From an uncultured Chloroflexia bacterium (lineage in GTDB: Bacteria > Chloroflexota > Limnocylindria > Limnocylindrales > CSP1-4): a DNA stretch of 64,000 nt. Position 1 is the first letter of the stretch. Every line of letters begins with the position of its first letter. Below the pieces are notes generated by a model. That model had not been told where the DNA came from. It worked only from the letters and a program-made list of their open reading frames with translations, and made no database searches. The DNA is taken from the NCBI GenBank assembly GCA_963720495.1, contig CAVRFU010000011.1, positions 246 through 64,245 on the forward strand, read 5' to 3'. Shown in pieces: positions 27,268 to 50,739 of this stretch. Both the position numbers and the translations under genes were made by a program.

Positions 27268-28272
27268 ATGAGGATCAGCCGGAACGCTCTGCTGCGGGCC
27301 ACGCTCGGGATCGCGATCAGCGTCGTCGCGATCGTCATCCTGATCAACTCGGTCGATATCGAGGCGGCCCTCCAGGTCCTCCGCACCGCATCGCCGGCCT
27401 GGATCGCGGTCATGTTCGTGACGGCGATCATCGACATCGGCGCCCGGGGCGGCCGCTGGCGAGCCCTCCTCGAGCCGATCGCGCCGCTGCCGTACAGCCG
27501 GGTCCTCGGCTACACCTACATCGGCTACCTCGCCAACAACGTCCTGCCGGCACGGCTGGGCGAGCTGTACCGGAGCCACGCCCTGGGCGAAGGCGAGGGC
27601 ATCAGCCGGCCGACGGTGCTCGGCACGGTCGTCGTGGAACGGGTCGTGGACACGGTCATGGTGGTCGCGATCGCCGCGATCGCGGTCCTGGTGCTGAGCG
27701 TCCGCGGCGTGATGACGAGCGCCGTGCTGCTCGGGCTCGCCTTCGTCGCCTTGCTGGTCATCGCGCTCGGGCTGGGCATCGTGGCCCACCGGCTGCCCGG
27801 TGCCGATCGCGTCATCGCGATCATCGCCCGACGGCCGCGACTCCTCGAGCTGGCGCGTCGCCTGCGCGACGGCCTCGCCGTGGCGCAACGGCCCCGCGTG
27901 ATCGTCGTCGCGCTCGCCTTCAGCGCCGTGGCCTGGACCGCGTCGACCGCCACGTTCCTGGTGGCCGGCCAGGCCGTCGGGGTCGAGCTGTCGGTCGCCC
28001 AGGCAGCCCTGATCACCAGCGGCGTGGCGCTCGTCTCGATCGTCCCGTCCGGTCCCGGCTACGTCGGCACGTTCGAGCTGACCGTCGTGGCCATCGCCGA
28101 CGGGCTCGGCATCCCGCGCGATCCGGCGTTCGCGCTCGGCCTGCTGGTCCACGTCGTGGTCCTGCTGGTCACGTCGGTCGGTGGCGTGATCGCGATGCTC
28201 GCCCTGCGCCGCCGGCGCGAGGCCGCGGCCGGATCGGCCGCCGCGGTCCCGGGGAGCAGGCCCGCGCCGTGA
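27268..28272 (+). CDS. flippase-like membrane protein (UPF0104 / lysylphosphatidylglycerol synthase TM-region family)
   Basis: Eight hydrophobic helices; motif YIGYLANNVLPARLGELYR. Confidence 0.7.
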   Translation: MRISRNALLRATLGIAISVVAIVILINSVDIEAALQVLRTASPAWIAVMFVTAIIDIGARGGRWRALLEPIAPLPYSRVLGYTYIGYLANNVLPARLGELYRSHALGEGEGISRPTVLGTVVVERVVDTVMVVAIAAIAVLVLSVRGVMTSAVLLGLAFVALLVIALGLGIVAHRLPGADRVIAIIARRPRLLELARRLRDGLAVAQRPRVIVVALAFSAVAWTASTATFLVAGQAVGVELSVAQAALITSGVALVSIVPSGPGYVGTFELTVVAIADGLGIPRDPAFALGLLVHVVVLLVTSVGGVIAMLALRRRREAAAGSAAAVPGSRPAP

Positions 28273-30266
28273 CCGAGGTCGGGAGCTTCCCGAACGTCCT
28301 CGCGCCCCTCACCCTGCGGCACCGGACATTGCGCAGCCGGATCAACTTCGGGGCGCACACCACCAACATGTCCGAGGAGGGCCTGCCCGGGAAGCGCCAC
28401 ATCGGCTACTACCGCGAGCGGGCGCTGGGCGGCGTCGGGATGATCGTCGTGGAGCCCGTCCCGGTCCACCGGACAGGCGTCCTGACCCGGGGCAACTTCC
28501 GCCACGGCGACGACGCGATCATCCCCGCCTTTCGCCGCCTGACCGACGCCTGTCGTGAGGCGAACCCGGACATCGTGATGATCCACCAGCTGTACCACCT
28601 CGGTCAGCACAACGACGCCGACAACTCGTTCGCGCCGAACTGGTCGCCGTCCGGCCTGCCCTCGTACCACGACGCCGACGGCAGCCACGCGATGACCGAG
28701 GCCGAGATCGAGGAGCTGATCGCGGGGTTCGTCGCGGCCGCCGGCCGGGCGCAGGCGAGCGGCTTCGACGGGATCGAGATCTTCGCCGGCTACAACGGCG
28801 CGGTCGACCAGTTCTGGACGACCTGGACGAACCGGCGGACCGACCGCTGGGGCGGATCGTTCGAGAACCGGATGCGCTTCTCGTCCGAGATCCTGCGACG
28901 GATCCGCGAGCGCTGCGGCGACGACTTCATCATCGGCATGGGCGTCAGCGCCGACCCCGACTCGCCGGCGATGCTGTCCGTCGAGGAGCTGGCCCGGACC
29001 GTCGGCTGGCACGACGAGCGACGGCTGATGGACTACGTCTCGTGCGGCACGGGCTCGTACTTCGACTTCTTCAAGATCATCCCGCCGTCGCTCTTCCCGC
29101 AACGGCTCGGCGAGCCGTACGCGGCGGCCCTCAAGGCCGTCTGCCGGAACGCCCTCGTCCAGGCCGAGAGCCACATCCGGACGCCCGCCGCGGCGGAGGC
29201 GGTCCTCGCCGCCGGTCATGCCGACATGGTCAGCATCGTCCGCGGCCAGATCGCCGACCCGCACCTCGTCGCCAAGACGCGTGCCGGCCGCGCCGACGAG
29301 GTCCGGCCGTGCATCTCGTGCAACCAGCTGTGCTGGGGCCGCCGATCGCGCGACTACTGGATCTCCTGCCTGGTCAACCCGTCGGCCGGCCGCGAGTGGG
29401 AGTGGGACGGCGACCGGTTCGAACCCGCGGCCAGGCCCCGGCGCGTCCTTGTCGTCGGCGGCGGTCCGGCCGGGCTGGAGGCGGCTCGCGTCGCGGCGGA
29501 ACGGGGCCATCACGTGATCCTCATGGAGCGCGGGCCGGAGCTCGGCGGCCAGTTCCGTCTGGCCGGGCGCCAGCCATCGCGCGGCCAGATCACGGACCTC
29601 ATCGCCTGGTTCGGCCGGCGGTTGGACGCCCTGGGCGTGGACGTCCGGCTGGGCGTCGAGGCGAGCGCAGCGGACGTGACGGCGGCCGAGGCGGACGAGG
29701 TCATCGTGGCGACCGGGTCGCGCCCGCCGCTGACCGGCTTCCAGCGGGCCCTGCCGGAGCTGGACCGGCTGCCCGGCGTGGACGGCCCCGACGTCGTCCC
29801 GGTCCAGGCGGTGCTGGATGGCGCCGTCCTCGCGGGCCGGCGCGTCCTCGTGCTCGACGACGTCCAGGACTGGCGGGGTCTCGGCACGGCCACGTTCCTG
29901 GCCGAGGCGGACCACGACGTGACGATCGTGACCGCCGCGGCCGTGGTGGCGGGCGGCCTCTATCACAGCGCCGCCGACGGACCGCTCCGGAAGCGCTTCG
30001 CCGAGGCCGGCGGACGATCCATCACGTCGGCCTGCGTCCTCGAGTGGCGCGCGGGTGTGGCCACGATCCGCTCGACGCTGACCGGCGAGGTCTCGACGCT
30101 CGAGGCGGATGCGCTCGTGATCGCCGAGACGCCGGTCTCCGAGACGGGGCTGGCCGCCGACCTCACCGCCCTCGGCGTGCCGTTCCACGAGATCGGCGAC
30201 GCGGTCGCGCCCCGTCGCGCCAGCCTCGCCTTCTTCGAGGCCCGGGAGCTCGCCCGCCGGCTCTGA
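28269..30266 (+). CDS. FMN/FAD/[4Fe-4S] oxidoreductase of the trimethylamine dehydrogenase / 2,4-dienoyl-CoA reductase / N-methylproline demethylase family
   Basis: OYE-like TIM-barrel N-terminus (RINFGAHTTNM, GVGMIVVEP), Cys cluster CISCNQLCWG...SC, then an ADP-binding fold VLVVGGGPAGLEAARVAAERGHHVILME. GTGA overlap with the upstream gene. Confidence 0.85.
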   Translation: MTEVGSFPNVLAPLTLRHRTLRSRINFGAHTTNMSEEGLPGKRHIGYYRERALGGVGMIVVEPVPVHRTGVLTRGNFRHGDDAIIPAFRRLTDACREANPDIVMIHQLYHLGQHNDADNSFAPNWSPSGLPSYHDADGSHAMTEAEIEELIAGFVAAAGRAQASGFDGIEIFAGYNGAVDQFWTTWTNRRTDRWGGSFENRMRFSSEILRRIRERCGDDFIIGMGVSADPDSPAMLSVEELARTVGWHDERRLMDYVSCGTGSYFDFFKIIPPSLFPQRLGEPYAAALKAVCRNALVQAESHIRTPAAAEAVLAAGHADMVSIVRGQIADPHLVAKTRAGRADEVRPCISCNQLCWGRRSRDYWISCLVNPSAGREWEWDGDRFEPAARPRRVLVVGGGPAGLEAARVAAERGHHVILMERGPELGGQFRLAGRQPSRGQITDLIAWFGRRLDALGVDVRLGVEASAADVTAAEADEVIVATGSRPPLTGFQRALPELDRLPGVDGPDVVPVQAVLDGAVLAGRRVLVLDDVQDWRGLGTATFLAEADHDVTIVTAAAVVAGGLYHSAADGPLRKRFAEAGGRSITSACVLEWRAGVATIRSTLTGEVSTLEADALVIAETPVSETGLAADLTALGVPFHEIGDAVAPRRASLAFFEARELARRL

Positions 30267-30338
30267 GGCAGTGGCGCGCCGTACCATGGACCAGGCACGA
30301 TCCCGCGACACGGCGCACGGCACCCCGAGGAGATGCGA

Positions 30339-31886
30339 ATGACCGCTCCCGACCTCGAACACCCCTCGGTCCGCCGCGGTCGTGCCGCCCGCCAGACGGA
30401 GCGCCTGGCGCGAGCCATGGATACGGTCCCGTACCTGACCCGCACCCTGCAGCCCGTCGAGGTCATCTCGACCGAGGGGCTCGAGCAGATCGAGGCGAAC
30501 GCGGACACCCTCCTGGAGCAGGTCGGCATCGAGATCGTCAACTTCCCCGAGGCGGTGGAGATCTTCCGCGGCGCCGGCGCGGAGATCGAGGGCCAGCGGG
30601 TGCGCTTCCCGCGCGGGATGTGCCGCTCCCTGGTCATGGCCTCCGCGCCGACGGTCTTCACGCAGCTGGCCCGCAACCCGGCGCGCAGCGTCCGGATCGG
30701 CGACCCGTACATGGTCCTCGTGCCGACCTACGGCTCGCCGTTCATCCACAACCTCGATGACGGCCGGCGCTACGCGACGATCGAGGACTTCCGCAACTTC
30801 GTGAAGCTGGCCTACACGAGCCGGACGCTCCACCACGATGGCGGCACGCTCTGCGAGCCCGTGGACCTGCCGGTCAACAAGCGCCACTTCGAGATGGTCT
30901 ACAGCCACATCCGCTACTCGGACCGGGCGTTCATGGGCTCCGTGACACACCCCAGCCGGGCGCAGGACTCGGTCGACATGGCCCGGATCGTGTTCGGGGC
31001 CGAGACCACGGAGCGGGAGCACGTCATCATGGGCCTGGCCAACGCCAACTCGCCCATGTCGTGGGACTTCAACATGCTCGGCTCGGCCAAGGTCTACGCC
31101 GAGAACAACCAGATCATGCTCATCACGCCGTTCATCCTGGGCGGCGCGATGGCCCCGGTCACCGTCGCGGCGCAGGCCACCCAGACGCTGGCCGAGGCGC
31201 TGGCGGGCATGGCCTTCTGCCAGATCGTCCGGCCTGGGGCGCCGGTGATCTTCGGCTCATTCGCGTCGTCGATGTCGATGCAGACCGGCGCGCCGACGTT
31301 CGGGACGCCCGAACCGCAGCTCGTGCTCTTCGTCCTGGCCGCGCTCGCCCGGCGGCTCAAGGTGCCGTTCCGGAGCGGGGGCAACTTCACGGCCTCCAAG
31401 GTGCCCGACTACCAGGCGGCCTACGAGAGCGCCATCAGCTACATGGCGACGATGCAGGCCGGGGTCAACTTCAACCTCCACACGGCGGGCTGGCTGGAGG
31501 GCGGCCTGGCCATCGGCTACGAGAAGTTCATCCTCGACGAGGACCAGGCGTCGATGACCGAGGCCTATGTCAAGGGTGTCGACGTCAGCGACAACGGCTA
31601 CGCACTCGACGCCATGCTGGCCGGCGGTCCGGGTCAGCATTTCCTGGGATCGCCCCACACGCTGGCCAACTTCGAGAACGCCTTCTGGCGCTCCGAGCTG
31701 TCGAACAACGACAGCTTCGAGCAATGGGAGCTCGATGGCGCGCTCGATGCCGCCCAGCGCGCCAACCTCCGCTGGAAGAAGCGCCTGGCCGAGTACGAGA
31801 TGCCGGCGATCGACGACGCCGTCCACGACGAGCTGGTCGACTGGATGGACCGCCGCAAGGCGAGCTTCCCAGACTCCGATGTCTGA
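30339..31886 (+). CDS. MttB-family (trimethylamine methyltransferase superfamily) protein, non-pyrrolysine type, paralog 1
   Basis: About 515 aa with no internal stop. Shares long blocks with paralog 2 (GGAMAPVT, QxVRPGAPVI(F/Y)G, GAPxFGTPE, GWxEGGL, HFxG). GAGGAG precedes the second ATG at 30339 by 6 nt. Confidence 0.9.
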   Translation: MTAPDLEHPSVRRGRAARQTERLARAMDTVPYLTRTLQPVEVISTEGLEQIEANADTLLEQVGIEIVNFPEAVEIFRGAGAEIEGQRVRFPRGMCRSLVMASAPTVFTQLARNPARSVRIGDPYMVLVPTYGSPFIHNLDDGRRYATIEDFRNFVKLAYTSRTLHHDGGTLCEPVDLPVNKRHFEMVYSHIRYSDRAFMGSVTHPSRAQDSVDMARIVFGAETTEREHVIMGLANANSPMSWDFNMLGSAKVYAENNQIMLITPFILGGAMAPVTVAAQATQTLAEALAGMAFCQIVRPGAPVIFGSFASSMSMQTGAPTFGTPEPQLVLFVLAALARRLKVPFRSGGNFTASKVPDYQAAYESAISYMATMQAGVNFNLHTAGWLEGGLAIGYEKFILDEDQASMTEAYVKGVDVSDNGYALDAMLAGGPGQHFLGSPHTLANFENAFWRSELSNNDSFEQWELDGALDAAQRANLRWKKRLAEYEMPAIDDAVHDELVDWMDRRKASFPDSDV

Positions 31887-31898
31887 GCCGCGCGTCCG

Positions 31899-33959: not shown

Positions 33960-34080
33960 CCCGCGCAGGACGGGGCGCTGTATCCCGCGGACGACATAGG
34001 CGAGCGACAGGTCTTCGACCTTGAGCGCAGCCGGGGAGGCCGCGGGCCCCCCTGGGGCGGAGGCGGGGCCAGCTCGGTCG

Positions 34081-35928
34081 TCATTCGCTCAACACAGACT
34101 GCAGGGAGTCCGCGATCAGGTTCACCGCGACGACCGTGCTCGCGATCGCCAGCGCGGGGAACAGGGTCGGCCACCACGCCCCGCTGATCATGTTGTTGTA
34201 CTCCTGGCTCACGGTCAGACCCCAGTCCGCGGACGGCGGCTGGATCCCGACGCCGAGGAACGACAACGTGGCGATGGTGAAGATCGCGTAGCCGAACCGT
34301 ACCGTCATCTCGACGACCGTCGGTCCGAGGACGTTCGGAAAGATCTCCCGGGACAGGATGAAGAAGCCCGTCTCGCCACGGAGCTTGGCCGCGACGACAT
34401 AGTCCAGCTGTCTCTCGGACAGGACCGCCGAGCGAACGGTCCGGGCGACGATCGGCGTGAACAGGATGCCGACCACGCACACGACGACCAGCGGCGACGT
34501 GCCCAGCACGACGAGTGTCAGGAGCGCGACGAGGACGACCGGCAGGGCCAGGAATGCCTCGACGATCCGGCTCAGGACGTCGTCGATCGTCCCGCGGTAG
34601 TACCCCATCACGAGACCCAGGAGGGTCCCGGCCGCGACCCCGAGCAGCGCGGCAAGGGGGGCGAACAGCAACACGTCACGCGAACCGACCATGACCCGCG
34701 ACAGAACGTCACGACCGAGTCGGTCCGTGCCCATGAGGTGCTCAGGGCTCGGCGGCAGGTGGCCGGCCGCGAAGTAGTTGAACGGATCGTAAGGCGTGAT
34801 CCGTTCGCCCAGAACGGCCGTGATGATCCAGCCGATGATGACGATGTTGCCGATGATGAAGGCTGGCCGCCGGATGAGCACCGCGAAGGTCTCCCGGCGG
34901 GCCTGGGACCGCTCGGAGGCTGCTGGAGCCGCCATCGGCGCGGTCGGCTGGGGCTCGATGATGACATCGACCATCAGGTGTTCGCAGTCCAGTCGGATCC
35001 GTGGGTTCATCCAGGCGATCGTCATGTCCGCCACCAGCGTCGCGAGCATATAGACGATGCCGATGATGATGACGCCCGCGGTGAGCATCGGGATGTCCTT
35101 GCGCTGGGCGGCGAACAGCATCGTCTGGCCCATCCCGTTGTAGTTGAAGATCTTCTCGACCGCGATGATCCCGCCGAACAGGTAGCCGACCTGGACGGCG
35201 ATGACCGCGACGGTCGGGATGAGGGCATTTCGCAGGACGTGCTTGCGCATCACCTGGCTCGTGCTGAGACCCTTCATCGTCGCAGTCCGCGCGTAGTCGG
35301 ACTGGAGGACTTCGATGGTCCCTGCCCGCGTCATCCGCGCGATGTAGCCGAAGTACACGATCGCCATCGCGGTCGCCGGCATCAGGAGGTATTGCACCTG
35401 GGTCAGGATGCCAGCGTTGGGCGGTGGTGTTGCGAGGACGGGCAGTGCCTTGAGGCCGACCCCAACCACCACGACAAGGATGGTGCCGGTCACAAACTCC
35501 GGGATCGACGACGAGGTGACGCCGAGGAGGACGATCGCCCGATCGGTCGGCCGATCGCGACGCCTCGCGGCATACAAGCCGGCCGCGATGGCGAGGGGGA
35601 CCGTGATGGCGAGCGCGAGGCCGGCCAACTTTGCTGACCGGGCCATGGCGGCCACGAGCTGTGGGAGGACCGGCTGGTCATTGACGTATGAGTTCCCGAA
35701 GTCGAGCGTGACCACGCTCTTGATGGTGTCGAGGTACTGGACGATCAGGGGCCGGTTCGTCCCGAGTTTCTCGTTGAGCGCGTCGACGCTCTCCTGGGGT
35801 GCGAATGGGCCGAGGATCGTGCGCCCGACATCATTGGGCAGCACATTCGCGATCACGAAGACGATCGTGACCAGGATCCATATCGTGATGAGTGAGAGGA
35901 GCAGTCGGCGCGTGATGAACCGTGCCAT
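34081..35928 (-). CDS. ABC transporter permease, DppB-like and DppC-like halves in one ORF
   Basis: 615 aa. The first half ends with NPRIRLD, the usual DppB C-terminus. The second half starts at MVDVIIEP..., with RRPAFIIGNIVIIGW and the DppC-type core. Confidence 0.85.
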   Translation of the reverse strand: MARFITRRLLLSLITIWILVTIVFVIANVLPNDVGRTILGPFAPQESVDALNEKLGTNRPLIVQYLDTIKSVVTLDFGNSYVNDQPVLPQLVAAMARSAKLAGLALAITVPLAIAAGLYAARRRDRPTDRAIVLLGVTSSSIPEFVTGTILVVVVGVGLKALPVLATPPPNAGILTQVQYLLMPATAMAIVYFGYIARMTRAGTIEVLQSDYARTATMKGLSTSQVMRKHVLRNALIPTVAVIAVQVGYLFGGIIAVEKIFNYNGMGQTMLFAAQRKDIPMLTAGVIIIGIVYMLATLVADMTIAWMNPRIRLDCEHLMVDVIIEPQPTAPMAAPAASERSQARRETFAVLIRRPAFIIGNIVIIGWIITAVLGERITPYDPFNYFAAGHLPPSPEHLMGTDRLGRDVLSRVMVGSRDVLLFAPLAALLGVAAGTLLGLVMGYYRGTIDDVLSRIVEAFLALPVVLVALLTLVVLGTSPLVVVCVVGILFTPIVARTVRSAVLSERQLDYVVAAKLRGETGFFILSREIFPNVLGPTVVEMTVRFGYAIFTIATLSFLGVGIQPPSADWGLTVSQEYNNMISGAWWPTLFPALAIASTVVAVNLIADSLQSVLSE

Positions 35929-36004
35929 CGGCTACCTCTGCCCAGGATTGCGATGGGGCAGACGGAGGCCGGTGGATCCGTCCACCGGCCTCACGTTGTG
36001 CGTG

Positions 36005-37732: not shown

Positions 37733-37918
37733 CGTTCTGGTTCCTCCGGGAGCAAGATCACCTGACGGCGACGAGCACCTTGATATGCATCGATCGCATG
37801 GGCCTCGCATCGCCCGGAACGGTTTCCTCCAGCCGGGCGACGGATGTCTCGGAACGGTACTTGCGGCCATTCCCACTGTCAACGAACCCGGCCGGTGCGG
37901 CTGGGTGATACTCCGCAC

Positions 37919-41484: not shown

Positions 41485-43050
41485 GTGACGGATATGGAGA
41501 CGCCCGCGGGCGAGGGACTGCGGCGACGCCGCGGCGGTGGCCGGGAGGGCCACGCCCGGAACGCGCTGCCGCAGCAGCCGCCGTGGGCCCAGCCCCGGAT
41601 GCGCTACCGCCCGACCGAGGTCGTGTCGGCCGACGAGCTGGAGGCCATCCACATCGGCTCGCTCCGCGTCCTGTCCGAGATCGGCATGGACTTCCTCGAT
41701 GCGGAGGCGCGCGAGGTCCTGCGGGCGGCCGGCGCCCAGACCACCGAGGGCTCGCTGCGCGTGCGGTTCGACCCGGACATGGTCACCGAGCTCATCAAGA
41801 CCGCTCCGGCGACGTTCACCCTGCACGCCTGGAACCCGGAGCACGACCTGGAGCTCGGCGGCGACTGGGTGGCGTTCGGGACGGTCGGCAGCCCACCCAA
41901 CGTCGCCGACCTCGACCACGGCCGGCGGATCGGCAACCGCGCCGACTACCAGAACCTGCTCCGCCTGGGCCAGTCGCTCAACTCGGTCCACTTCCTGGCC
42001 GGCTACCCGGTCGAGCCGGTCGACATCCACCATGGCGTCCGCCACCTCCACGCCACCTTCGACGCGCTGACGCTGATGGACAAGCCGATCCACGCCTACA
42101 GCCTCGGTCGCCAGCGCAACATCGACACCCTCGAGATGGTCCGGATCGCGCGCGGCATCGACGCCGAGCAGCTCGATCGCGAGCCGTCGATCTTCACCGT
42201 CGTCAACTCGAGCTCGCCGCTCCGGCTGGACGCCCCGATGCTCCAGGGGATCATGGAGTTCTCGGCCCACAACCAGGCCGTGTGCATCACGCCGTTCACG
42301 CTGTCCGGCGCGATGGCGCCGGTCACCCTGGCCGGCGCGCTGGCGGAGCAGAACGCCGAGGCGCTGGCCGGGATGGTCCTGACCCAGGCGGTCCGGCCCG
42401 GGGCGCCGGTGATCTACGGCGGCTTCACCTCGAACGTCGACATGCAGTCGGGCGCGCCGGCGTTCGGGACGCCGGAGTACATGCGGACCGCGATGATCGG
42501 CGGCCAGCTGGCGCGCCGCTACGGCGTCCCGTACCGCTCGTCGAACGTCAACGCGGCCAACGCGCTCGACGCCCAGGCGGCCTACGAGTCGGTCTTCTCG
42601 CTGTGGGGCGCGATCCAGGGCGGGGTCAACCTGCTGATGCACGGGGCGGGCTGGATGGAGGGCGGGCTCCACGCCAGCTACGAGAAGATGATCCTCGACG
42701 CCGAGCTGCTCGGGATGGTCGCCGCGTTCCTCGAGCCGGTCGTCGTGGACGAGGAGACGCTCGCCTTCTCGGCGATGCAGGAGGTCGGCCCGGGCGGCCA
42801 CTTCTTCGGCGCCGAGCACACCCAGTCGCGCTACCGGACCGCGTTCCACAAGCCGATGCTCAGCGACTGGCGCAACTACGAGACCTGGCAGGAGGCGGGC
42901 TCGCCCGAGCTGCCCGCCAAGGCCAACCGGATCTGGAAGGAACTGCTGGCGGCGTACGAGCCGCCGCCCATGGACCCCGCCGTCGCCGAGGAGCTGGAGG
43001 CGTTCGTCGCCCGGCGCGTGGCGGAGGGCGGCGTCCCGACCGACTACTGA
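41485..43050 (+). CDS. MttB-family methyltransferase, non-pyrrolysine type, paralog 2
   Basis: 521 aa with no internal stop. GGGAGG 5 nt upstream of GTG 41485. Same conserved blocks as paralog 1. Confidence 0.9.
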   Translation: MTDMETPAGEGLRRRRGGGREGHARNALPQQPPWAQPRMRYRPTEVVSADELEAIHIGSLRVLSEIGMDFLDAEAREVLRAAGAQTTEGSLRVRFDPDMVTELIKTAPATFTLHAWNPEHDLELGGDWVAFGTVGSPPNVADLDHGRRIGNRADYQNLLRLGQSLNSVHFLAGYPVEPVDIHHGVRHLHATFDALTLMDKPIHAYSLGRQRNIDTLEMVRIARGIDAEQLDREPSIFTVVNSSSPLRLDAPMLQGIMEFSAHNQAVCITPFTLSGAMAPVTLAGALAEQNAEALAGMVLTQAVRPGAPVIYGGFTSNVDMQSGAPAFGTPEYMRTAMIGGQLARRYGVPYRSSNVNAANALDAQAAYESVFSLWGAIQGGVNLLMHGAGWMEGGLHASYEKMILDAELLGMVAAFLEPVVVDEETLAFSAMQEVGPGGHFFGAEHTQSRYRTAFHKPMLSDWRNYETWQEAGSPELPAKANRIWKELLAAYEPPPMDPAVAEELEAFVARRVAEGGVPTDY

Positions 43051-43064
43051 GAGGGACCGAGCGG

Positions 43065-45525
43065 ATGAAGAACGAGTTCCAGGCCGTCGTCATCGGTGGT
43101 GGCGTCGTCGGGGCGAGCGTCCTGTACCACCTGACGAAGGCGGGCTGGAAGGACGTCGTCCTGCTCGAGCGTCGCGAGCTCACGGCCGGCTCCACCTGGC
43201 ACGCGGCCGGCGGCATGCACACGCTCAACGGCGACCCGAACGTCGCGCGCCTCCAGCAGTACACGATCAACCTCTACCAGGAGATCGAGAAGGTCTCCGG
43301 CCAGAGCTGCTCGATCCACCTGTGCGGCGGGCTGATGCTGGCCGACACCGAGGAGCGGATGGACTTCCTCCGGATGGCCGTCGCGCGGGGCCGCTACCTC
43401 GGGATGGAGCTCGAGATGATCACGCCCTCGGAGGCGCGGGACATCTTCCCGGTCATGGATCCGCAGTACTTCGTGGGCGCGCTGTACGACCGCGTCGAGG
43501 GCCACGTCGACCCGACGGGCGTCACCCAGGCGTACGTGAAGTGCGCCCAGATGGCCGGCGCGGAGGTGCGCCTCCACACGCTCGTCACGGGGCTGTCGCA
43601 GCGTCCGGACGAGACGTGGGACGTCCAGATCGAGGGCGGCGACCCGATCCACGCCGAGCACGTCGTCAACGCCGGCGGCCTGTGGGCCCGCGAGGTCGGC
43701 CGGATGGTCGGTCTCGAGCTGCCGGTCCTGGCCATGGAGCACCAGTACGTGCTCACCGCGGACGTGCCGGAGATCAAGGCCTTCAACGAGTCGACCGGCA
43801 AGGAGCTGCCGATGACCATCGACTTCGGCGGCGAGATCTACGTCCGCCAGGAAGGCGGCGGGATGCTCCTCGGCACCTACGAGCAGGACGCCAGGCCGTG
43901 GTCGCCCAAGGTGACGCCCTGGGACTTCGGGTCGCAGCTCCTCAAGCCGGACCTGGACCGGATCACGCCCGAGATGTCCGTCGCCTCGAAGCACATCCCG
44001 TCGATGGCGACGGTCGGGATCAAGCAGGTCGTCAACGGGCCGTTCACGTTCGCCCCGGACGGCAACCCGCTGGTCGGGCCGATCCGCGGGCTCCGGAACT
44101 ACTGGCTCGCGTGCGGGGTCATGGCCGGCCTGTCGCAGGGCGGCGGCGTGGGGCTCGCGCTGGCGGCCTGGATGTCGGCCGGCGACGCGGGCGATTCGGG
44201 GATGGACATCTTCGGCATGGACATCGCCCGGTTCGGCGACTACGCCAAGCTGGCGTACACGAACGCGAAGGTCCAGGAGAACTACAAGCGCCGCTTCCAG
44301 ATCACCTTCCCGAACGAGGAGCTGCCCGCCGCGCGGCCGCTCCGGACCACGCCGATCTACGACCGGTTGACGGCCGCCAACGCGGTCTGGGGCGCGTCGC
44401 TCGGTCTGGAGCATGCGCTCTGGTTCCAGGAGGCCGGTCTCGAGCCGAAGGAGGACGTGACCTTCCGTCGGTCGAACGCGTGGGAGTGCGTGGCCGGCGA
44501 GGTCGCGGCGGTGCGCGAGCGAGTCGGCGTCACGGAGATCTCCAACTACGCCAAGTACCGGGTGACCGGGCCGGGGGCGGAAGCCTGGCTGTCGTCCCTC
44601 CTGACCGCGCGGATGCCGCGGCCGGGCCGGATCGTCCTGACCGCGATGCTCAACGAGGCCGGCCGGATCGTCGGCGAGTTCACGGTCGCGCGGCCGACCG
44701 AGGACGACGAGTACTACCTGTTCGGCTCGCTCGCCGCCGAGGTCCACCACGCGCGCTGGTTCGCCGCCCACCTGCCGGCGGACGGGTCCGTGACGTTCGA
44801 GGTGCTGGGCCTGTCGCTCGTCGGCCTGTCCATCGCCGGCCCGCATGCCCGGGACGTCCTGGCCGCGCTCACGGACGAGGACCTGTCCACCGCGGCGTTC
44901 CGGTTCATGGACTTCCGGCGGATCGAGGTCGGGATCGTCCCGGCGCTCGTCGGCCGGATCAACTACAGCGGCGAGCTCGGCTACGAGCTGTGGGTCGCGC
45001 CGGAATACCAGGAGGCGCTGTTCGACCGGATCATGAGCCGCTGGCGAGGAGCACGGGATCCGGCTCTTCGGGTTCCGGGCCCTGATGTCGTTGCGGCTCG
45101 AGAAGAGCTACGGCACCTGGTATCGCGAGTACCGCCCGATCTACACGCTCCACGAGGCAGGCCTCCAGCGCTACGTGAAGCTCGACCACGAGTTCATCGG
45201 CCGGGCGGCGTACGAGAAGGAGGCCGAGACCGGCCCCGAGCGCCGGCTGGTCACTCTCGTGGTGGAGCCCGACCCGGACGCACCGGCGGACGTGATCGGG
45301 GACGAGCCGATCTGGCACGACGGCGAGGTCGTCGGCTGGGTCACCTCCGGGAGCTACGGCCACCACGTCGGGAAGTCGATCGCGCTCGGGTACGTGCCGA
45401 CCGCGCTCGCCTCGCCGGACGCCGGGGACGGCCGTTTCGAGATCGAGATCATCGGCCGGCGCCGGCCGGCCCGGCTCCAGCCCGAGCCGCTGTTCGACCC
45501 CGAGGGCCTCCGGATGCGCCAGTGA
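43065..45525 (+). pseudogene. dimethylglycine/sarcosine dehydrogenase-like FAD oxidoreductase fused to a GcvT folate-binding domain, frame broken near 45033-45037
   Basis: VVIGGGVVGASVLYHL, STWHAAGG (covalent-FAD His motif), then the GcvT region up to ...EALFDRIM in the frame of ORF 41289..45830. The continuation AAGEEHGIRLFGFRALMSLRLEKSYGTWYREY... is in frame +1 (ORF 45085..45525). Confidence 0.85.
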
Positions 45526-47747
45526 GCGAGGTCACGACGGAGGCACCCCCGGCGCTCGCCGGCGCGGCGGCGGGCGGATCGTCGTCGACGGGCGGCCGGT
45601 CGCGTTCGAGGCGGGCGACACGGTCGCGATCGCGATCCTGCGCGGCGGCGAGGTCCCCGGGCGGGGCGGCACGCTGTGCCTTGCCGGCGATTGCGGCAAC
45701 TGTCTCGCCGAGGTCGACGGCACGGCCTACGTCCGGACGTGCCAGACCGCCGCCCGCCCCGGACTGCGGGTCGCCCGGCATCCGGTCGATTCGATGCCGG
45801 CACTCCCCGTGGTGGCCGCCACGGATCTGACCGCCGACGCCCCTCCCGGTCACCGTCGAGCTGCACCATCTCGAGGTGGACGTCGCGGTCATCGGCGGCG
45901 GCTCGAGCGGGCTCGCCGCGGCCGCCGAGGCGGAGCGGGCGGGCAAGTCCGTCCGCGTCCTCGACGCCCATGCCGGCGAGGAGGTCGTCGCGATCTACGC
46001 CGGGCCGATGATCGTCGTCCGCACGACCCACGGCATGCTCCACGTCCATCCGGGCGAGATCGTGGTCGCGACGGGCGCCGCCGAGATCCATCCGGTCGTG
46101 CCCGGGCAATCGCCTGGCGGGGATCGTCACGGCGCGGGCCGCGGAGCAGCTGCGGACCGCCGGCGTGGACCTGGGCCGGGTGGTCGCGGTGGACCACGAC
46201 CTCGTGCGGTTCGAGGGCGACGGTGGGCGCGTCCGGGCTGTCGTGACGGCGGACGCGACGGGCGTCGAGACCACGACGCCGGCCGACACGGTGCGGTCGA
46301 CCTCGGCCTGGCGCCACGCGATCTCCTCGCGCGGATGGCCGGTGCCGTGCCGGTGAGCGTCGTCGGCGACGCGGCCGCCGACCAGCCGCTTCCCCCGCCA
46401 CCGACCGAGGGCGTGGTGTGCGGCTGCATGGGCACGACGGTCGCCGACCTCGGTGCCGCCTGGGATCGCGGCTTCACCGAGCTCGAGCTGCTCAAGCGCG
46501 CCAGCCAGGCGTGTCTCGGCCCGTGCCAGGGCGGCGCGTGCCTGCCCCAGGTCCGATCGTGGATCGCCGCGCGGACGGGTGAGGTCCCCGATCCGTTCAC
46601 CGCGCGGCCCGCGTCCCGCCAGATCACCCTCGCCGAGGCCGGCGCGGACGGCTACGTCGACGCGTTCCGGCGGACGCCGCTCCACGACGAGCACCTGGCG
46701 CTCGGGGCGCGGATGGACCGGTTCGGTGGCTGGTGGCGGCCGTGGCACTACGGCGACGCGGTCTCCGAATACTGGGCGGTCCGCGAGGGCGTCTCGATCG
46801 GCGACGTGTCGACGCTCGGCAAGCTGGTCGTCTCGGGCCCGGACGTCGTGGAGCTGCTCGAGCGGATCTACCCGTGCACCGTGGCGGACATCAAGCCCGG
46901 CCGGTCGCGCTACGCCCTGCTGCTCAACGAGCGCGGCCACGTCATGGACGACGGGATGATCCTGCGCGAGAGCGAGACCCGGTTCGTGCTGTCGTTCACG
47001 TCCGGCGGCGCGGCCAACGCGGAGATGTGGCTGCGCGACTGGATCGAGGTCTGGGGCCTCCGCGTCCACGTGCTGGACCGGACGATGTCGCTGGCCGCGA
47101 TCAACGTCACGGGACCGCTGGCCGGGGCCTTGCTGCAACGCGCCGGGCTGGCCGACCCGCCGCGCTTCCTCGGCCACGTCCACGCCGACGTCGCCGGGGT
47201 GCCGTGCCACGTCATGCGCCTGTCGTTCACCGGCGAAGCCGCCTTCGAGCTCCACCACCCGGTCGACCGGTCGGTCGAGCTGTGGCGCGCGCTGCTGGAC
47301 CTCGGCGCCGACCTCGGGATCCGGCCGCACGGCCTCCAGGCGCTGTTCGGGCTGCGGCTGGAGAAGGGCCACGTGATCATCGGCATGGACACCGAGCTCG
47401 ACACGACGCCGCGCCGGCTCGGGATGGACTGGGCGGTCCGGATGGAGAAGCCGCGGTTCATCGGCCGGGCGTCGCTGGAGCGGACCGCGAAGCTGCCCGA
47501 CCACCGCCGCTGGGTCGGCTTCACGATGCCCGGCGTCGCGCCGGCCGAGGGCGCGCCGATCTGGTCCGGCGGCGAGGTCGTCGGCAACGTGACCGGCAGC
47601 TGGACGTCTCCGCTCCTCGGTCAGGCGCTGATGCTCGGCTGGCTCCGGCGGACGCCGTTCCCGGAGCGCGTCGAGATCGACGGTCGCGAGGCCGTCGTCA
47701 CGTCCACGCCGTTCTACGACCCGGAGGGCCACCGTGCCCGCGCTTGA
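45522..47747 (+). pseudogene. soxA: sarcosine oxidase alpha-subunit-like protein with an N-terminal 2Fe-2S-type module, four frame breaks
   Basis: GTG 45522 (GTGA overlap). RIVVDGRPVAFEAGDTVAIAIL...CLAGDCGNCLAEVDGTAYVRTC reads in frame -1 (about 45575-45848). VDVAVIGGGSSGLAAAAEA returns to frame 0. NRLAGIVTARAAEQLRTAGVDLGRVVAVDHDLVRFEGDGGRV reads in frame +1 (46105-46293). The GcvT-like C-terminus is in frame 0 to 47747. Confidence 0.75.
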
Positions 47748-48108
47748 GCCGTTGCGCGGGCTGCGCGTGGTCGCGGACCCGGCCGCCCTCGACGGCGCCC
47801 GCTGGCACGGCCCGGACGTGACCGTGCTCCGGCTCGCACCCGACGACGCCTTCGCCATCGGCGCCGAGACCGTCGACATCGACGACGAGCACGCGATCGT
47901 CGAACCGGAGGCCGGGTTCGCCGGCGTCTGGCTCCCGGTCGAGGTCATCGCGCACCACCTCGAGTGGCCGCTCCCGGCCGAGCGTCCCGCCCTCGCCCAG
48001 GGGTTCGTGGCGACCGTCCCGGCCAAGGTCTGGCTGCCCGACGACGGCGAGGCGTTGCTCCTCACGGCCGCCGCCTACGCGGACGAGCTAGCGGGGCGAC
48101 TCCGATGA
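47734..48108 (+). CDS. soxG: short sarcosine oxidase gamma-subunit-like protein
   Basis: The assignment rests on position (overlaps the soxA stop, ATGA overlap with soxB) and weak SoxG-like C-terminal similarity (QGFVATVPAKVWLPDDGEALLLTAAAYADELAGRL). It is shorter than the roughly 200 aa I recall for SoxG. Confidence 0.45.
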   Translation: MPALEPLRGLRVVADPAALDGARWHGPDVTVLRLAPDDAFAIGAETVDIDDEHAIVEPEAGFAGVWLPVEVIAHHLEWPLPAERPALAQGFVATVPAKVWLPDDGEALLLTAAAYADELAGRLR

Positions 48109-49314
48109 GCGCCTACACGGACACGCTGCCGGCCCTCCGCCGGTACGAGCCGAAGTCGAGCTACGACGTCGTCATCGTGGGCGCCGGCGGGCACGGCCTG
48201 TCGACCGCGTACTACCTCGCGACGCGCCACGGGATCACCAACGTGGCCGTCGTGGAGGCCGACTACCTCGCATCCGGCAACACCGGTCGCAACACCACCA
48301 TCATCCGGGCCAACTACGGCATCCCCGAGGCGGTCCGGTTCTACCAGCATTCGCTCGAGATGTACCAGGGCCTCGAGGCGGAGACGGGTGCCGCGATCCT
48401 CCACCAGACCAAGGGCATCTTCTGGGTCGCCCACACGGAGATGGCGATGCGCACCGAGCGCGCCCGGGTGGCCATGAACACGGCCTGCGGCGCGAAGACC
48501 GTGATGGTCAGCCCGGCCGAGCTCAAGGAGCTGGTCCCGCAGGTGGACCTGACAGGCGGCGGACGTTACCCGGTCCTGGGCGCCTCGCACCATCTCGAGG
48601 CCGCGACCGCCCGGCACGACCGGGTGGCCTGGGCGTTCGCCGCCGGCGCGTCGCAGCGCGGCGTCCACCTCATCGAGCACACGCCGGTGACCGGCCTGCT
48701 CCGCGACGGGGACCGGGTCGTGGGCGTGGAGACGACCCGCGGTCCGATCGCGGCCGGCGTCGTCCTGCTCGGCGGTCGGTGGCCGGGTGACGAAGATGGC
48801 GGCCCACGCCGGCGTCCGGCTGCCGATCCGGACCCACCCGCTCCATGCCTTCGTGACCGACGACTACGCGCAGGGCTTCTCGCCGATCCTCGCGAGCACG
48901 GAGCTGTCCTGCTACGTCTCGCAGACGGAGCGCGGCCAGATGCTGATCGGCGCCGAGTTCGACTCGCAGCCGTCGTATTCGCGCCAGTCGTCCTTTGCCG
49001 CGCTGCGGAGCTATTCGTACAAGATCACCCGGCTGCTGCCGTTCCTGCGCGAGCTCCGGATCCTGCGGACCTGGGCGGGCATCTGCGACATCTCCGCGGA
49101 CTACTCGCCGATCATGGGCGCGACCGGCGTGGACGGCTTCCTGGTCACGACCGGGTGGGGGACCTGGGGCTTCAAGGCGATGCCGGCCGGTGGCGAGGGC
49201 ATGGCCGAGCTCATCGCGACGGGCCGGCCCTCGGCCCTCATCGCCCCGTTCAGCCTGGACCGCTTCCGGCGCGACCACGTCCTGGCCGACCAGGGCTCGG
49301 CGGGGACGCGCTGA
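48105..49314 (+). pseudogene. soxB: sarcosine oxidase beta subunit, frame broken near 48765-48770
   Basis: YDVVIVGAGGHGLSTAYYLA, SGNTGRNTTIIR ... GPIAAGVVL in the frame of ORF 47964..49559. The continuation SAVGGRVTKMAAHAGVRLPIRTHPLHAFVT...GWGTWGFK is in frame +1 (ORF 48787..49314). Confidence 0.85.
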
Positions 49315-49559
49315 TGCTCTGGCTCGATTGCCCGCGGTGTGGCCGGCGGCCACTCGAGGAGTTCACGTTCGGCGGTGAGCGGCGACCCGTGCCCGACACG
49401 ATCACCGATCCCGACGAACGCGACTTCGACGAGGTCTGGATCTTCGACAACCCCGACGGCGAGACGACCGAGCGCTGGTTCCACGCCGCCGGCTGCCGGC
49501 GCTGGCTGACGGTCCGGCGCGACACCTCGACCGACACGGTGCTGGAGGTGCTGGCATGA
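49314..49559 (+). CDS. soxD: sarcosine oxidase delta subunit
   Basis: MLWLDCPRCGRRPLEEFTFGGE...WFHAAGCRRW with the zinc-binding Cys pattern of SoxD. TGATG overlap with soxB. Confidence 0.8.
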   Translation: MLWLDCPRCGRRPLEEFTFGGERRPVPDTITDPDERDFDEVWIFDNPDGETTERWFHAAGCRRWLTVRRDTSTDTVLEVLA

Positions 49560-50739
49560 CCCGGCTGGCTGACCGGTCGATGGAGATCGTGCTCCGCAAC
49601 CGGGTCCTGTTCGGGGTCGGCGCCCTCGAGCGGCTCCCGGAGGCCGTCGCGGCCGCCGGTGGCACGCGCGTCTTCGTCGTCACGGACCCGGGCGTGCGTG
49701 GCGTCCGGCGTGATCGACCGGGTGCTGGCCATCCTGGCCGCGGCAGACGTGGAGGCGTCCGTGTTCGCCGGCGTCGAGCCGAACCCCGGCGCCTCGACGG
49801 TCGAGCGCGGCGCCGAAGCGCTCCGCACCTTCGGGCTGGGCGGCACGGTGGTCGTCCCGGTCGGTGGCGGCTCGTCGATGGATACCGCCAAGGCTCTCGA
49901 CCTGCGCGCGACCAACGACCAGCCCGTCTGGGATCTCGAGTACGACGGTCCGGACCTCGAGCCCGGGCGCCCGGTCGTGGCGGTGCCGACGACCGCCGGG
50001 ACCGGTGCCGAGACCAACTCCTTCGCGGTCATCACGGACGAGGACGGCCGGACGCAAGGGCTACATCGGCCATCCGTCCCTGCTGCCGGTGACGACGATC
50101 CTCGATCCGGCGCTGACCCTCGGGCTGCCGCCGGCGGCGACGGCCGCGACCGGCATCGACGCGATGACCCATTCGCTCGAATCGCTGCTCTCGGCCAACC
50201 CCAACCCGTTCGCCGAGGCGATGGCGCTCGGCGTCATCAGGACCATCGGCACGTGGCTGCGGCGTGCGGTCGCGGACGGCACGGACATCGAGGCGCGATC
50301 CCAGATGCTGATGGCCTCGCACCTCGCCGGTGTCGGGCAGGCCAGCGGCACGGGTGTCGGCCTCGTCCACGCGCTGGGCCACTCCATCGGGACGCGCGGG
50401 GCCGTCGCCCACGGCACGGCGCTCGCGGCCGTCCTCCCCGAGGTCCTGCGCTTCTATCTCGGGACGCGCGACCGCGAGCTGGCGCTGGTCGGGATCGCGC
50501 TGGGGGTCGCCACGAGCGCCGAGTCCGAATCGACCGCCGCCGCCGTCGCGATCGGCGCGATCGACAAGCTGCTCCGAGACGTCGACCAGCGCCCCAGCCT
50601 GCGGGGCCTCGGCCTGGCCGACGATGCCGCCATCGACCGGCTCGTCACCGACACCCTCGACGACGCGGCCATCCGCAACTCGCCGCGGCTGCCGACCGCG
50701 GTCGAGGCGCGCGCGATCCTCGAGGCCGTCGCCGGCTGA
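49556..50739 (+). pseudogene. iron-containing (type III) alcohol dehydrogenase, two frame breaks near 49697-49701 and 50049-50053
   Basis: Segment 1 is VLFGVGALERLPEAVAAAGGTRVFVVTDPGV (ORF 49556). Segment 2 is ASGVIDRVL...VGGGSSMDTAKA...VPTTAGTGAETNSFAVITDEDGR (ORF 49659 frame). Segment 3 is KGYIGHPSLLPVTTILDPALTLGLPP...GIDAMTHSLE...VHALGHSIG...HG (ORF 49864 frame). ATGA overlap with soxD. Confidence 0.8.

Follow-up and report, generated by a model that had tools for sequence, protein, structure and literature searches.

The region between positions 28269 and 50739 is best explained as two conserved betaine-catabolic modules flanking one ABC importer in a genome of the Limnocylindria (Chloroflexota); we give this explanation as a whole a probability of about 0.7. 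Module 1 consists of an OYE/TMADH-family flavoprotein, the methyltransferase MttB1 and an Opp-type importer. Module 2 consists of an enolase-family gene, the methyltransferase MttB2, a DMGDH-like gene, SoxA/G/B/D and an iron-containing alcohol dehydrogenase (Fe-ADH). Both would serve to demethylate osmolytes of the glycine betaine type. This gene content bears out the preliminary description of the region as a methylated-amine (betaine) catabolic neighbourhood.

Most likely, the chemistry of both MttB proteins is that of the MtgBCD system known from aerobic bacteria. Each would take a single methyl group from a quaternary amine that bears a carboxylate and load it onto the Co(I) of a corrinoid protein of the MtgC type, from which the pterin-binding MtgD would transfer it onward to tetrahydrofolate, and oxidised cobalamin would be re-reduced by RamA and DUF1638. 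The partner genes (mtgC, mtgD, ramA and DUF1638) would lie elsewhere in the genome, outside the window (the whole 64-kb stretch of DNA analysed). The flavin/folate enzymes encoded nearby would then demethylate the tertiary or secondary amine products by oxidation: in module 2 the DMGDH-like enzyme and then Sox, and in module 1 the OYE-family enzyme, a candidate second-step N-demethylase by analogy with StcD/DgcA. For this genome, both the substrates and the reliance on cobalamin are inferred.

Gene content and conservation of the two modules

The features of module 1 are:

28269..30266, plus strand: OYE/FadH/TMADH-family Fe-S flavoprotein, 665 aa, two domains (Oxidored_FMN and Pyr_redox_2, Pfam)
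30339..31886, plus strand: MttB1, non-Pyl MttB-superfamily methyltransferase of the 'aerobic MtgB' clade, 515 aa
31899..34088, minus strand: fused double ATPase of an Opp/Dpp-type ABC importer (ABC_tran twice, oligo_HPY twice); start not fixed
34081..35928, minus strand: importer permeases OppC and OppB (BPD_transp_1 twice), read as one 615-aa ORF
36005..37732, minus strand: family-5 solute-binding protein of the importer (SBP_bac_5)

Those of module 2, with one further gene between its first two members, are:

37919..39025, plus strand: enolase-superfamily (MR/MLE) protein, reaction unassigned (MR_MLE_C and MR_MLE_N)
39674..41376, plus strand: ABC1/UbiB-type kinase (ABC1 domain), split by an indel near 41054
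41485..43050, plus strand: MttB2, non-Pyl MttB-superfamily methyltransferase of a separate deep clade, 521 aa
43065..45525, plus strand: DMGDH-like flavin/folate demethylase (DAO-FAO_M-GCV_T-GCV_T_C over two frames), frameshift at 45038
45525..47747, plus strand: SoxA-like subunit, short (Fer2_4, partial Pyr_redox, A3, GCV_T, GCV_T_C), several indels
47734..48108, plus strand: small ORF at the SoxG position, 124 aa
48105..49314, plus strand: SoxB (beta subunit), DAO domain over two frames, frameshift at 48767
49314..49559, plus strand: SoxD (delta subunit; PF04267), 81 aa in the related locus L002
49556..50739, plus strand: iron-containing alcohol dehydrogenase (Fe-ADH and ADH_Fe_C in two frames), indels at 49703 and 50045

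Both MttB genes are full-length and of the non-pyrrolysine type, as had been proposed. Pfam profile PF06253 is matched over positions 2-500 of 500 in MttB1 (689 bits) and 1-500 of 500 in MttB2 (654 bits), neither gene has an internal stop, and their TIGR02369 scores fall below the cut-off. The proposed MttB1 start at 30339 is correct, as the ribosome-binding site and orthologue N-termini agree on it. Both genes are under purifying selection, with dN/dS of 0.07-0.13 for MttB1, and 14 synonymous and 0 non-synonymous differences between MttB2 and its counterpart in L002.

Each MttB had been described as adjoining enzymes able to take off the remaining methyl groups, and both pairings are conserved. 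The DMGDH-like gene follows MttB2 in 39 of the 40 related loci with sufficient flank, and the OYE gene adjoins MttB1 in 13/17 Limnocylindria loci. The OYE/TMADH, DMGDH-like and Sox genes listed earlier as oxidative neighbours were all found, but the Sox order is A-G-B-D.

The OYE flavoprotein has its best PDB matches in NCR, FadH, histamine dehydrogenase and TMADH, and retains the canonical four-cysteine motif (C348xxC351xxxC355x11C367), in contrast to the Cys-to-Ala 'cluster 2' enzymes. An N-methylproline demethylase activity of OYE type has been described (PMC11759058). Rhizobial plasmids carry homologues of 55-57% identity; in S. fredii the homologue (55-56%) adjoins an MttB, and a Rieske oxygenase lies some 4 kb from it.

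The importer noted in the preliminary description is of Opp/Dpp type and occupies 31899-37732 on the minus strand. Its double ATPase (residues 5-678) and its solute-binding protein both align in a single frame with their counterparts in a second related locus, L003. There, OppC and OppB are two separate genes, and the single 615-aa ORF seen here probably reflects an artefactual indel at 34985.

Comparison of related loci showed that the enolase-superfamily gene (37919-39025) and Fe-ADH are both part of the conserved neighbourhood. The former lies upstream of MttB2 orthologues in 24/47 loci and, in L108 and L101, shows translational coupling to Aldedh-MttB2; its protein scored only 54 bits with HpbD, against 101 bits with 4GGB. 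The position of the ABC1 kinase is taken by an aldehyde dehydrogenase in other loci, and the kinase is probably an inserted passenger gene. The ORF at the SoxG position had no match in Pfam or NCBIfam and recurs in 21 related loci, at 43-74% identity. In 5 of 12 loci, Fe-ADH comes after SoxD. It may be a choline dehydrogenase resembling GbsB, which is its best NCBIfam match (252 bits, under the cut-off of 550). Positions 50749-51690 encode a luciferase-like monooxygenase.

Probable substrates of the two methyltransferases

In the tree, MttB1 nests within the MtgC-linked clade. It is 63-67% identical to MtgC-linked enzymes, with 55-57% for those of S. meliloti and Paracoccus, and it matches PDB 4YYC, placed beside the S. 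meliloti protein, with 612 bits. Its pocket signature, Y-R-H-G with HxAGWLEGG, is the same in MtgC-linked proteins. MttB2, with the signature G-R-H-G, is 36-40% identical to all other clades in the tree set. In the MtgB of Desulfitobacterium hafniense, R312 and H348 bind the carboxylate (PMC13080624). Equivalents of this arginine and histidine are kept in both paralogues, at an overall identity to that enzyme of only 36-37%; Phe356 is replaced by Gly in both, and Tyr97 by Gly in MttB2.

MttB2 is the probable methyltransferase for glycine betaine or a close analogue, as its gene context points to glycine betaine or choline. The MttB1/OYE module could act on glycine betaine or on another betaine, such as proline betaine, and glycine betaine is a likely substrate of at least one of the two enzymes. 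It is possible, if doubtful, that these roles are exchanged, with MttB1 the glycine betaine enzyme, the OYE protein a DgcA-like dimethylglycine demethylase, and MttB2 acting on another OpuA-transported betaine (proline betaine, carnitine or a choline-derived compound) whose product the 'DMGDH/Sox' neighbours would process. The pocket that MttB1 shares with the MtgC-linked clade would fit such an exchange, as would an Azoarcus homologue of MttB1 (62-63%) grouped with betA, betB and a choline solute-binding protein, and the loss of the Tyr97 equivalent from MttB2. The neighbourhoods of MttB2 homologues (52-57%) in Mesorhizobium and Phaeobacter are unrelated, with an Ldh-family oxidoreductase, a 2OG oxygenase and a Rieske protein, and the conservation of an enolase-family gene hints that the substrate is chiral. 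Against this stand the near-invariant DMGDH-like gene after MttB2 (39/40) and the four-subunit Sox set behind it, the Aldedh and Fe-ADH neighbours, which suit a route from choline to glycine betaine, and the OpuAC solute-binding protein, whose best match is the glycine betaine binder OsmF.

The corrinoid partner

The statement that the window encodes no B12-binding protein or partner methyltransferase held up. None of its called genes contains a B12-binding, Pterin_bind, MtrH, URO-D, RACo or DUF1638 domain, six-frame tblastn of the window with Paracoccus MtgC, DUF1638, MTHFR, MtgD and RamA gave a best E of 0.38, and no cobalamin riboswitch was found in it. The significance earlier attached to this is weak, given the clade of MttB1, the contiguity seen in L111 and L144, and the operons of other Limnocylindria. 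The window is about 2% of a genome of roughly 3 Mb. The host lineage belongs to the soil Chloroflexota, class Limnocylindria.

In L111 and L144, the MttB2 orthologues (76% and 77% identity, tblastn) lie between an upstream OpuA-type betaine transporter and, in order, DMGDH, SoxAGBD, IclR, MtgC, DUF1638 and MtgD; the L111 MtgD scores above its NCBIfam cut-off. A further locus, L136, has an operon-type MtgB after the Sox genes, other Limnocylindria MAGs carry complete mtgC-DUF1638-mtgD-ramA-mtgB operons, and MtgC homologues named Limnocylindrales are abundant. Among clade members at 61-71% identity to MttB1, 53 of 63 have MtgC, MtgD or RamA within 10 kb; Chloroflexota/Limnocylindria MAGs account for nine of the 53.

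Could MttB in this sublineage work without a dedicated MtgC? The acceptor might then be the B12 domain of MetH, free cobalamin or tetrahydrofolate directly, perhaps via the adjacent GCV_T-domain enzymes. Besides the absence of a partner from the window, corrinoid genes lie within 10 kb of 0/18 MttB1 orthologues, as against the 53/63 of the next-closest clade members, and a small case for novelty persists because of this figure. Moreover, MttB1-type and mtgC-linked loci have no MAG name in common among the matches listed, and cross-matching of homologue listings, in which sampling is sparse, found no contig with an MttB1 or MttB2 orthologue together with MtgC. We nevertheless consider such an acceptor unlikely, as MttB1 has the pocket signature of MtgC-linked enzymes at 63-67% identity and MttB2 orthologues sit physically beside mtgC-DUF1638-mtgD in L111 and L144. 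To our knowledge, no corrinoid-independent MttB-family enzyme has been described. Unlinked partner genes, by contrast, are documented in Ruegeria pomeroyi (PMC12478193).

Gene integrity and relation to known systems

In this assembly, single-base indels interrupt each of five genes (DMGDH-like, SoxA, SoxB, Fe-ADH and ABC1), which could suggest a decaying pathway in which the oxidative demethylases are pseudogenes and the cluster a relic. We regard this as very improbable. At every frameshift the window differs from L002 (98.45% identical) by a one-base indel, and L002 has the affected genes intact, among them DMGDH-like (819 aa), SoxB (402 aa; TIGR01373, 411 bits), Fe-ADH (393 aa) and ABC1 (567 aa). 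Intact orthologues also occur in the JGI contigs L101, L108 and L111 (DMGDH-like, 814-826 aa; SoxA-like in L111, 753 aa). Conversely, the ATPase gene is shattered in L002 where the window has it intact, which argues for random long-read errors in both assemblies. We therefore read the frameshifts in the five genes as assembly indels.

The source names 'trimethylamine--corrinoid protein Co-methyltransferase', a product of automatic annotation, are almost certainly wrong, since both genes lack an in-frame UAG, score 232 and 312 bits against the Pyl-type TIGR02369 cut-off of 525, and resemble MtgB and 4YYC much more closely than they do Methanosarcina MttB.

Oxidative betaine routes are those of Pseudomonas (GbcAB-DgcAB-SoxBDAG) and S. 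meliloti (Stc2/StcD). The downstream enzymes resemble those found here, namely an OYE/TMADH-family demethylase and a heterotetrameric sarcosine oxidase, but the first demethylation there is by a Rieske oxygenase, in whose position the window has an MttB. D. hafniense MtgB/MtgC/MtgA (PDB 2QNE, 9YCE) likewise has a non-Pyl TIM-barrel MttB family member (PMC13080624); that organism, however, is anaerobic and has the corrinoid gene alongside, and its methyl groups enter Wood-Ljungdahl or respiratory metabolism rather than meeting oxidative demethylases. Eubacterium limosum MtpB, MtcB, MtyB and MthB, paralogues with differing betaine specificities and one shared corrinoid protein (PMC8604678, PMC12155760), offer a model, likened by description, for two paralogues in one genome, although from a gut acetogen.

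The earlier view that MttB homologues of aerobes essentially lack an assigned function and methyl acceptor is outdated. Mausz et al. (2025) showed that aerobic bacteria use pfam06253 proteins with the corrinoid protein MtgC and the methyltransferase MtgD, including a cobalamin route with dispersed genes in the aerobe R. pomeroyi, and that a genome may have as many as seven pfam06253 paralogues (PMC12478193). The MtgB-MtgC-MtgD(-MtgE), RamA and DUF1638 system of R. pomeroyi DSS-3 and S. meliloti (PMC12478193) shares with the present region aerobe pfam06253 enzymes, several paralogues per genome, partner genes that can be unlinked, and dimethylglycine and sarcosine enzymes that continue the demethylation. 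It differs in that the phylum here is Chloroflexota, that MtgC, MtgD and RamA genes are absent from the 64 kb seen, that MttB1 is paired with an OYE flavoprotein and an Opp-type importer in place of mtgC, and that MttB2 forms a separate clade (36-40% identity). We conclude that the cluster is most likely an ordinary, unlinked version of the betaine demethylation pathway published for aerobes in 2025, because relatives encode the B12 carrier beside the same genes.

Gene content and integrity of the locus

The G+C content of the window is 72%, so genes were called by third-position GC and then checked with Pfam. Both MttB genes encode a full-length PF06253 TIM-barrel domain, covering profile positions 2 to 500 of 500 in MttB1 (689 bits) and 1 to 500 of 500 in MttB2 (654 bits). 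Their reading frames are uninterrupted, with no in-frame UAG (pyrrolysine) codon and no internal stop. Identity as Pyl-type trimethylamine methyltransferases (TIGR02369) was rejected, as the two proteins, at 232 and 312 bits, fall short of the 525-bit cut-off and lack the UAG. The genes are arranged as follows.

5' of MttB1, plus strand: 665-aa flavoprotein with OYE and Pyr_redox_2 domains (Pfam)
30339-31886, plus strand: MttB1, 515 aa
3' of MttB1, minus strand: Opp/Dpp-type ABC importer (Pfam)
37919-39025, plus strand: enolase-superfamily gene, the first of a series past the importer
next in the series, plus strand: conserved 139-aa ORF
39674-41376, plus strand: ABC1/UbiB-type kinase
41485-43050, plus strand: MttB2, 521 aa
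next, plus strand: dimethylglycine dehydrogenase (DMGDH)-like gene
next, plus strand: SoxA-like gene
next, plus strand: 124-aa ORF
next, plus strand: SoxB
next, plus strand: SoxD
last of the series, plus strand: Fe-ADH

Among the genes called in the 64 kb, none carries a B12-binding, pterin-binding, MtrH, URO-D, RACo or DUF1638 domain (Pfam), and six-frame tblastn searches of the window with Paracoccus MtgC, DUF1638, MTHFR, MtgD and RamA gave a best E value of 0.38. The preliminary description had reported two full-length non-Pyl MttB genes with no corrinoid partner in the window; as the MttB genes are real and B12, pterin and activase genes are absent from the 64 kb, that observation is confirmed. 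It also described an aerobic setting, which fits the oxidases, LigB-type dioxygenase and phenylacetyl-CoA oxygenase genes of the window. Rfam searches of the window detected no cobalamin, THF or glycine riboswitch, and the sole RNA gene found was a tRNA-Ile (anticodon TAT, 58311-58387).

The DMGDH-like, SoxA, SoxB, Fe-ADH and ABC1 kinase genes are each spread over at least two frames in the window. Look-ups of exact proteins gave no record for MttB1, the aldehyde dehydrogenase (1507-2979) or the 59431-61017 protein. The exact MttB2 protein occurs on two ENA contigs, one of which, the sister contig L002, aligns with window 31506-53053 at 98.45% identity with 36 single-base indels. The frame breaks coincide with indels at 41054, 45038, 46101/46291, 48767 and 49703/50045, and the same genes are all intact in L002. 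The reverse is seen for the ABC ATPase gene, which is fragmented in L002 but reads through in one clean frame in the window; the genes that are broken differ between the two assemblies. This coincidence and the reverse case rule out a pseudogene reading of the DMGDH, Sox and Fe-ADH genes, and orthologues of the broken genes are intact also in three JGI contigs (L101, L108 and L111). Judged from the compared assemblies, the frameshifts in all five genes are long-read consensus errors, and any other apparent frameshift or fusion within 31506-53053 is probably one too.

The ABC1 kinase gene is broken near 41054 and intact in L002 (567 aa), so that its C-terminus corresponds to the 79-aa 'TM protein' ORF (41137-41376). 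OppB and OppC (34081-35928) read as a single 615-aa ORF in the window and as separate overlapping genes in L003, a further contig with an MttB1 orthologue; relative to L002, an inserted base at 34985 probably fuses them. Elsewhere in the window, paaABCD (15038-17708) is flanked by an enoyl-CoA hydratase represented by a C-terminal fragment only (14104-14355, in region 13539-14355) and by a 3-hydroxyacyl-CoA dehydrogenase that begins, at 18081 (region 17708-18824), at profile position 97. Both are probably further indel-broken genes. G+C falls to 0.66-0.67 at 34000-38000, over the permease and binding-protein genes, compared to about 0.72 elsewhere. A GT2 glycosyltransferase and LPG_synthase_TM pair (26460-28272) lies directly 5' of the cluster, its stop overlapping the OYE start by 4 nt. 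As the pair recurs in L108 (2728-4490), a few kb 5' of the enolase-MttB2 module, its synteny is conserved; a link to betaine catabolism is not obvious.

Candidate demethylases and other partner genes

The 665-aa flavoprotein has the OYE FMN domain, 4-Cys [4Fe-4S] motif and ADP/FAD-binding domain of two-domain OYE enzymes, and is a candidate demethylase, with enoate or dienoyl-CoA reductase as the alternative function. Its cluster motif is the canonical C-x2-C-x3-C-x11-C, and structure-sequence comparison showed a resemblance to NCR, FadH, histamine dehydrogenase and TMADH. Its top NCBIfam match is the mycofactocin-associated FadH/OYE family (536 bits, cut-off 793). N-methylproline demethylase activity is known for one related enzyme of the two-domain OYE type (PMC11759058); membership of the Cys-to-Ala 'cluster 2' of such demethylases (PMC11759058) is ruled out by the canonical motif. 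OYE homologues (55-57%) occur on rhizobial plasmids. On S. fredii pSF45436b (L172, 9195-18695) the homologue directly adjoins MttB, and a Rieske oxygenase and the regulators GlxA and LysR are encoded nearby. Another homologue, on Mesorhizobium pMSNZP2077A (L169), has an MR/MLE gene, a LysR regulator, MttB and a ProVWX transporter in its vicinity. A database entry for an 878-aa 'MttB plus Oxidored_FMN fusion' on a 310852-bp ENA contig (P0090) looks like a frameshift read-through artefact of neighbouring MttB and OYE genes rather than a real protein.

The DAO, FAO_M, GCV_T and GCV_T_C architecture of the dimethylglycine dehydrogenase family is complete in the intact 819-aa L002 protein; the window copy is split at 45038. 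SoxB scores 411 bits (cut-off 529) and SoxD matches PF04267. The SoxA-like alpha subunit is short (620-753 aa versus about 1000) and matches TIGR01372 positions 525-995, and the 124-aa ORF at the Sox gamma position has no family match in Pfam or NCBIfam. The top NCBIfam match of the Fe-ADH is the GbsB choline dehydrogenase, well under its cut-off. The enolase-superfamily protein is nearest to acid-sugar dehydratases and cycloisomerases, scoring 101 bits with 4GGB, 80-96 bits with acid-sugar dehydratases and 54 bits with HpbD. A role as an HpbD-type (hydroxy)proline betaine 2-epimerase is unsupported, as the protein is not close to 2PMQ/4H2H and reached no NCBIfam cut-off. Among NCBIfam equivalog names, no curated cut-off was reached by the OYE, enolase, Aldedh, Fe-ADH or SBP proteins.

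Relation to the aerobic MtgB system

In aerobic Ruegeria pomeroyi, glycine betaine induces two pfam06253 proteins (MtgB; Mausz et al., PNAS 2025; PMC12478193). Betaine demethylation there requires MtgC, a cobalamin-binding protein encoded at an unlinked site, and the pterin-binding MtgD, and RamA and DUF1638 act in reactivation (PMC12478193). There are up to seven pfam06253 paralogues per genome, and dimethylglycine and sarcosine demethylation genes are often close by (PMC12478193), an association also found in the window. The presence of mttB genes in Limnocylindria MAGs had been noticed earlier (PMC11264602). The interpretation offered in the preliminary description is thus supported in part: given the R. 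pomeroyi findings, its premise, an essentially unassigned methyl acceptor in aerobes, is outdated (PMC12478193). A missing partner inside 64 kb is weak evidence.

We consider it most likely, with a probability of roughly 0.7, that both MttB enzymes would methylate an MtgC-type corrinoid protein encoded elsewhere in the genome. MtgD would then carry the methyl group to tetrahydrofolate, RamA and DUF1638 would hold cobalamin reduced, and the neighbouring flavin/folate enzymes would strip the remaining methyl groups oxidatively. Of the aerobic system, MtgC (B12-binding_2 plus B12-binding), MtgD and RamA/DUF1638 are absent from the window, but MtgC is present in other Limnocylindria MAGs, MtgD and RamA/DUF1638 are found in operons of the class, and MtgD and DUF1638 lie beside MttB2 orthologues. 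We infer from these relatives that methyl transfer in this genome depends on cobalamin; the substrates are likewise read from gene context.

In a neighbour-joining tree, MttB1 and its orthologues nest within an MtgC-linked clade of Limnocylindria, Actinomycetota and Proteobacteria, in which PDB 4YYC is a neighbour of the MtgC-linked protein of S. meliloti. MttB2, together with its orthologues, branches deeply as a clade of its own, with 36-40% identity to everything else including D. hafniense MtgB; yet two MttB2 orthologues, in L111 and L144, adjoin mtgC. The experimentally defined MtgB site (Tyr97, Arg312, His348 and Phe356; PMC13080624) was mapped onto the MttB alignment. MttB1 and all MtgC-linked aerobic proteins have Y-R-H-G at these positions, with the motif H(A/T)AGWLEGG, and the MttB2 clade has G/A-R-H-G, with the motif HGAGWMEGG (G-R-H-G in MttB2 itself). 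Both paralogues therefore retain the carboxylate-binding pair, Arg and His, and neither has the complete D. hafniense-type glycine betaine motif. By clade and pocket signature, MttB1 groups with the MtgC-linked pfam06253 proteins; its predicted pocket is that of a clade whose proteobacterial members sit in glycine betaine/choline contexts. Codon comparisons show purifying selection on the MttB genes, with a dN/dS of 0.07-0.13 among close orthologues, and 14 synonymous and no non-synonymous changes between MttB2 and its L002 counterpart.

Neighbourhoods of the relatives and likely substrates

The closest matches to MttB1, at up to 92-93% identity, come from MAGs labelled Candidatus Limnocylindrales, Limnocylindria or Chloroflexota, and a single long-read MAG series supplies many of them. 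We surveyed MttB1 loci with one genome per GTDB species, which gave 80 loci among the matches listed. The 17 orthologues at 80-93% identity among these matches, and the one in L003, are all from Limnocylindria; the OYE gene is found at 13 of the 17 loci, and the importer with a family-5 SBP is also carried. No MtgC, MtgD or RamA gene lies within 10 kb of MttB1 at any of the 18. Among the listed homologues of 61-71% identity, MtgC, MtgD or RamA genes lie within 10 kb in 53 of 63, nine of the 53 being Chloroflexota/Limnocylindria MAGs with an mtgC-DUF1638-mtgD-ramA-mtgB operon. MtgC homologues labelled Limnocylindrales are numerous, and no MAG name is common to the MttB1-type and operon-type lists among the matches listed, although all share the scan motif EDFRNFVK.

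MttB1 may be the lineage's MtgB gene moved beside the OYE gene and importer. It is improbable that in the OYE-MttB1 sublineage MttB1 left the mtgC-DUF1638-mtgD-ramA-mtgB operon in a genome without a dedicated MtgC, with methyl groups passing from the two MttB paralogues via the MetH cobalamin domain or free cobalamin, or directly to tetrahydrofolate with the neighbouring GCV_T flavoenzymes. If true, the MttB family would gain a new chemistry of methyl transfer.

Among cultured relatives, the Paracoccus methylovorus plasmid homologue of MttB1 (57-58% identity) is divergent from a cluster of genes for a B12-binding protein, DUF1638, MTHFR, a methyl-THF:cobalamin methyltransferase and ASKHA/RamA; S. 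meliloti has the same arrangement, adjoining bmt. The Azoarcus homologue (62-63%) is grouped with folD, ETF-QO, choline SBP, betA and betB. On one ENA contig (L168, contig_139413, 10001-20969), a Limnocylindria-type mtgC-DUF1638-mtgD-RACo-mttB operon is directly followed by genes for S-methyltransferase and MTHFR and by metH in full length, an arrangement that echoes a connection reported for Proteobacteria between betaine demethylation and methionine synthesis. A Chloroflexia MAG (L034, 16351-17745) has a third, very distant MttB paralogue (22-24% identity) without Arg312 and His348 equivalents, flanked by DMGDH-like genes and 3' of an mtgC-mtgD-ramA-mtgB operon.

For MttB2, 80 orthologues (69-91% identity) were collected from JGI metagenome contigs. 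A DMGDH-like gene and then SoxA/G/B/D lie 3' of MttB2 in 39 of the 40 loci with enough flank, and are contiguous with it in the window too; the enolase gene is 5' in 24 of 47. L111 and L144 have the order OpuA-type ATPase, permease, OpuAC binding protein, MttB2, DMGDH (814 aa), SoxA (753 aa), SoxG-like, SoxB and SoxD, followed by IclR in opposite orientation and then by MtgC, DUF1638, a small Virulence_fact protein and MtgD; the L111 MtgD exceeds its NCBIfam cut-off. L136 has an operon-type MtgB after SoxD, and L131 an OpuA transporter 5' of the MttB2 module. L108 and L101 have the order enolase, aldehyde dehydrogenase, MttB2, DMGDH, Sox and Fe-ADH with overlapping stops and starts, the enolase gene being translationally coupled to aldehyde dehydrogenase and MttB2; between the enolase gene and MttB2, related loci have an aldehyde dehydrogenase where the window has the ABC1 kinase. 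Past SoxD, Fe-ADH follows in 5 of 12 readable loci, as in the window, and mtgC in 2.

The OpuA, Aldedh, Fe-ADH, DMGDH and Sox context points to choline or glycine betaine as the probable substrate of the MttB2 module. For MttB1, the OYE partner could be DgcA-like or StcD-like, which leaves its substrate between these readings. MttB2 represents a deep, uncharacterized MttB clade with DMGDH-like and Sox genes almost invariably 3' and an OpuA-type betaine transporter 5' in at least L111 and L131. The pairing of MttB with an OYE/TMADH-family enzyme recurs from Limnocylindria to Sinorhizobium fredii, and suggests a two-enzyme sequential N-demethylation in which MttB would replace the Rieske oxygenase; the cultured rhizobia with OYE near MttB are tractable organisms for testing it.

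Limnocylindria are abundant, uncultured Chloroflexota of soil and freshwater. The data indicate that they break down osmolytes of the glycine betaine type through the cobalamin-dependent MtgB pathway, which was recently demonstrated in marine Proteobacteria. If this is true, the B12 demand of betaine turnover would extend to a major soil lineage.
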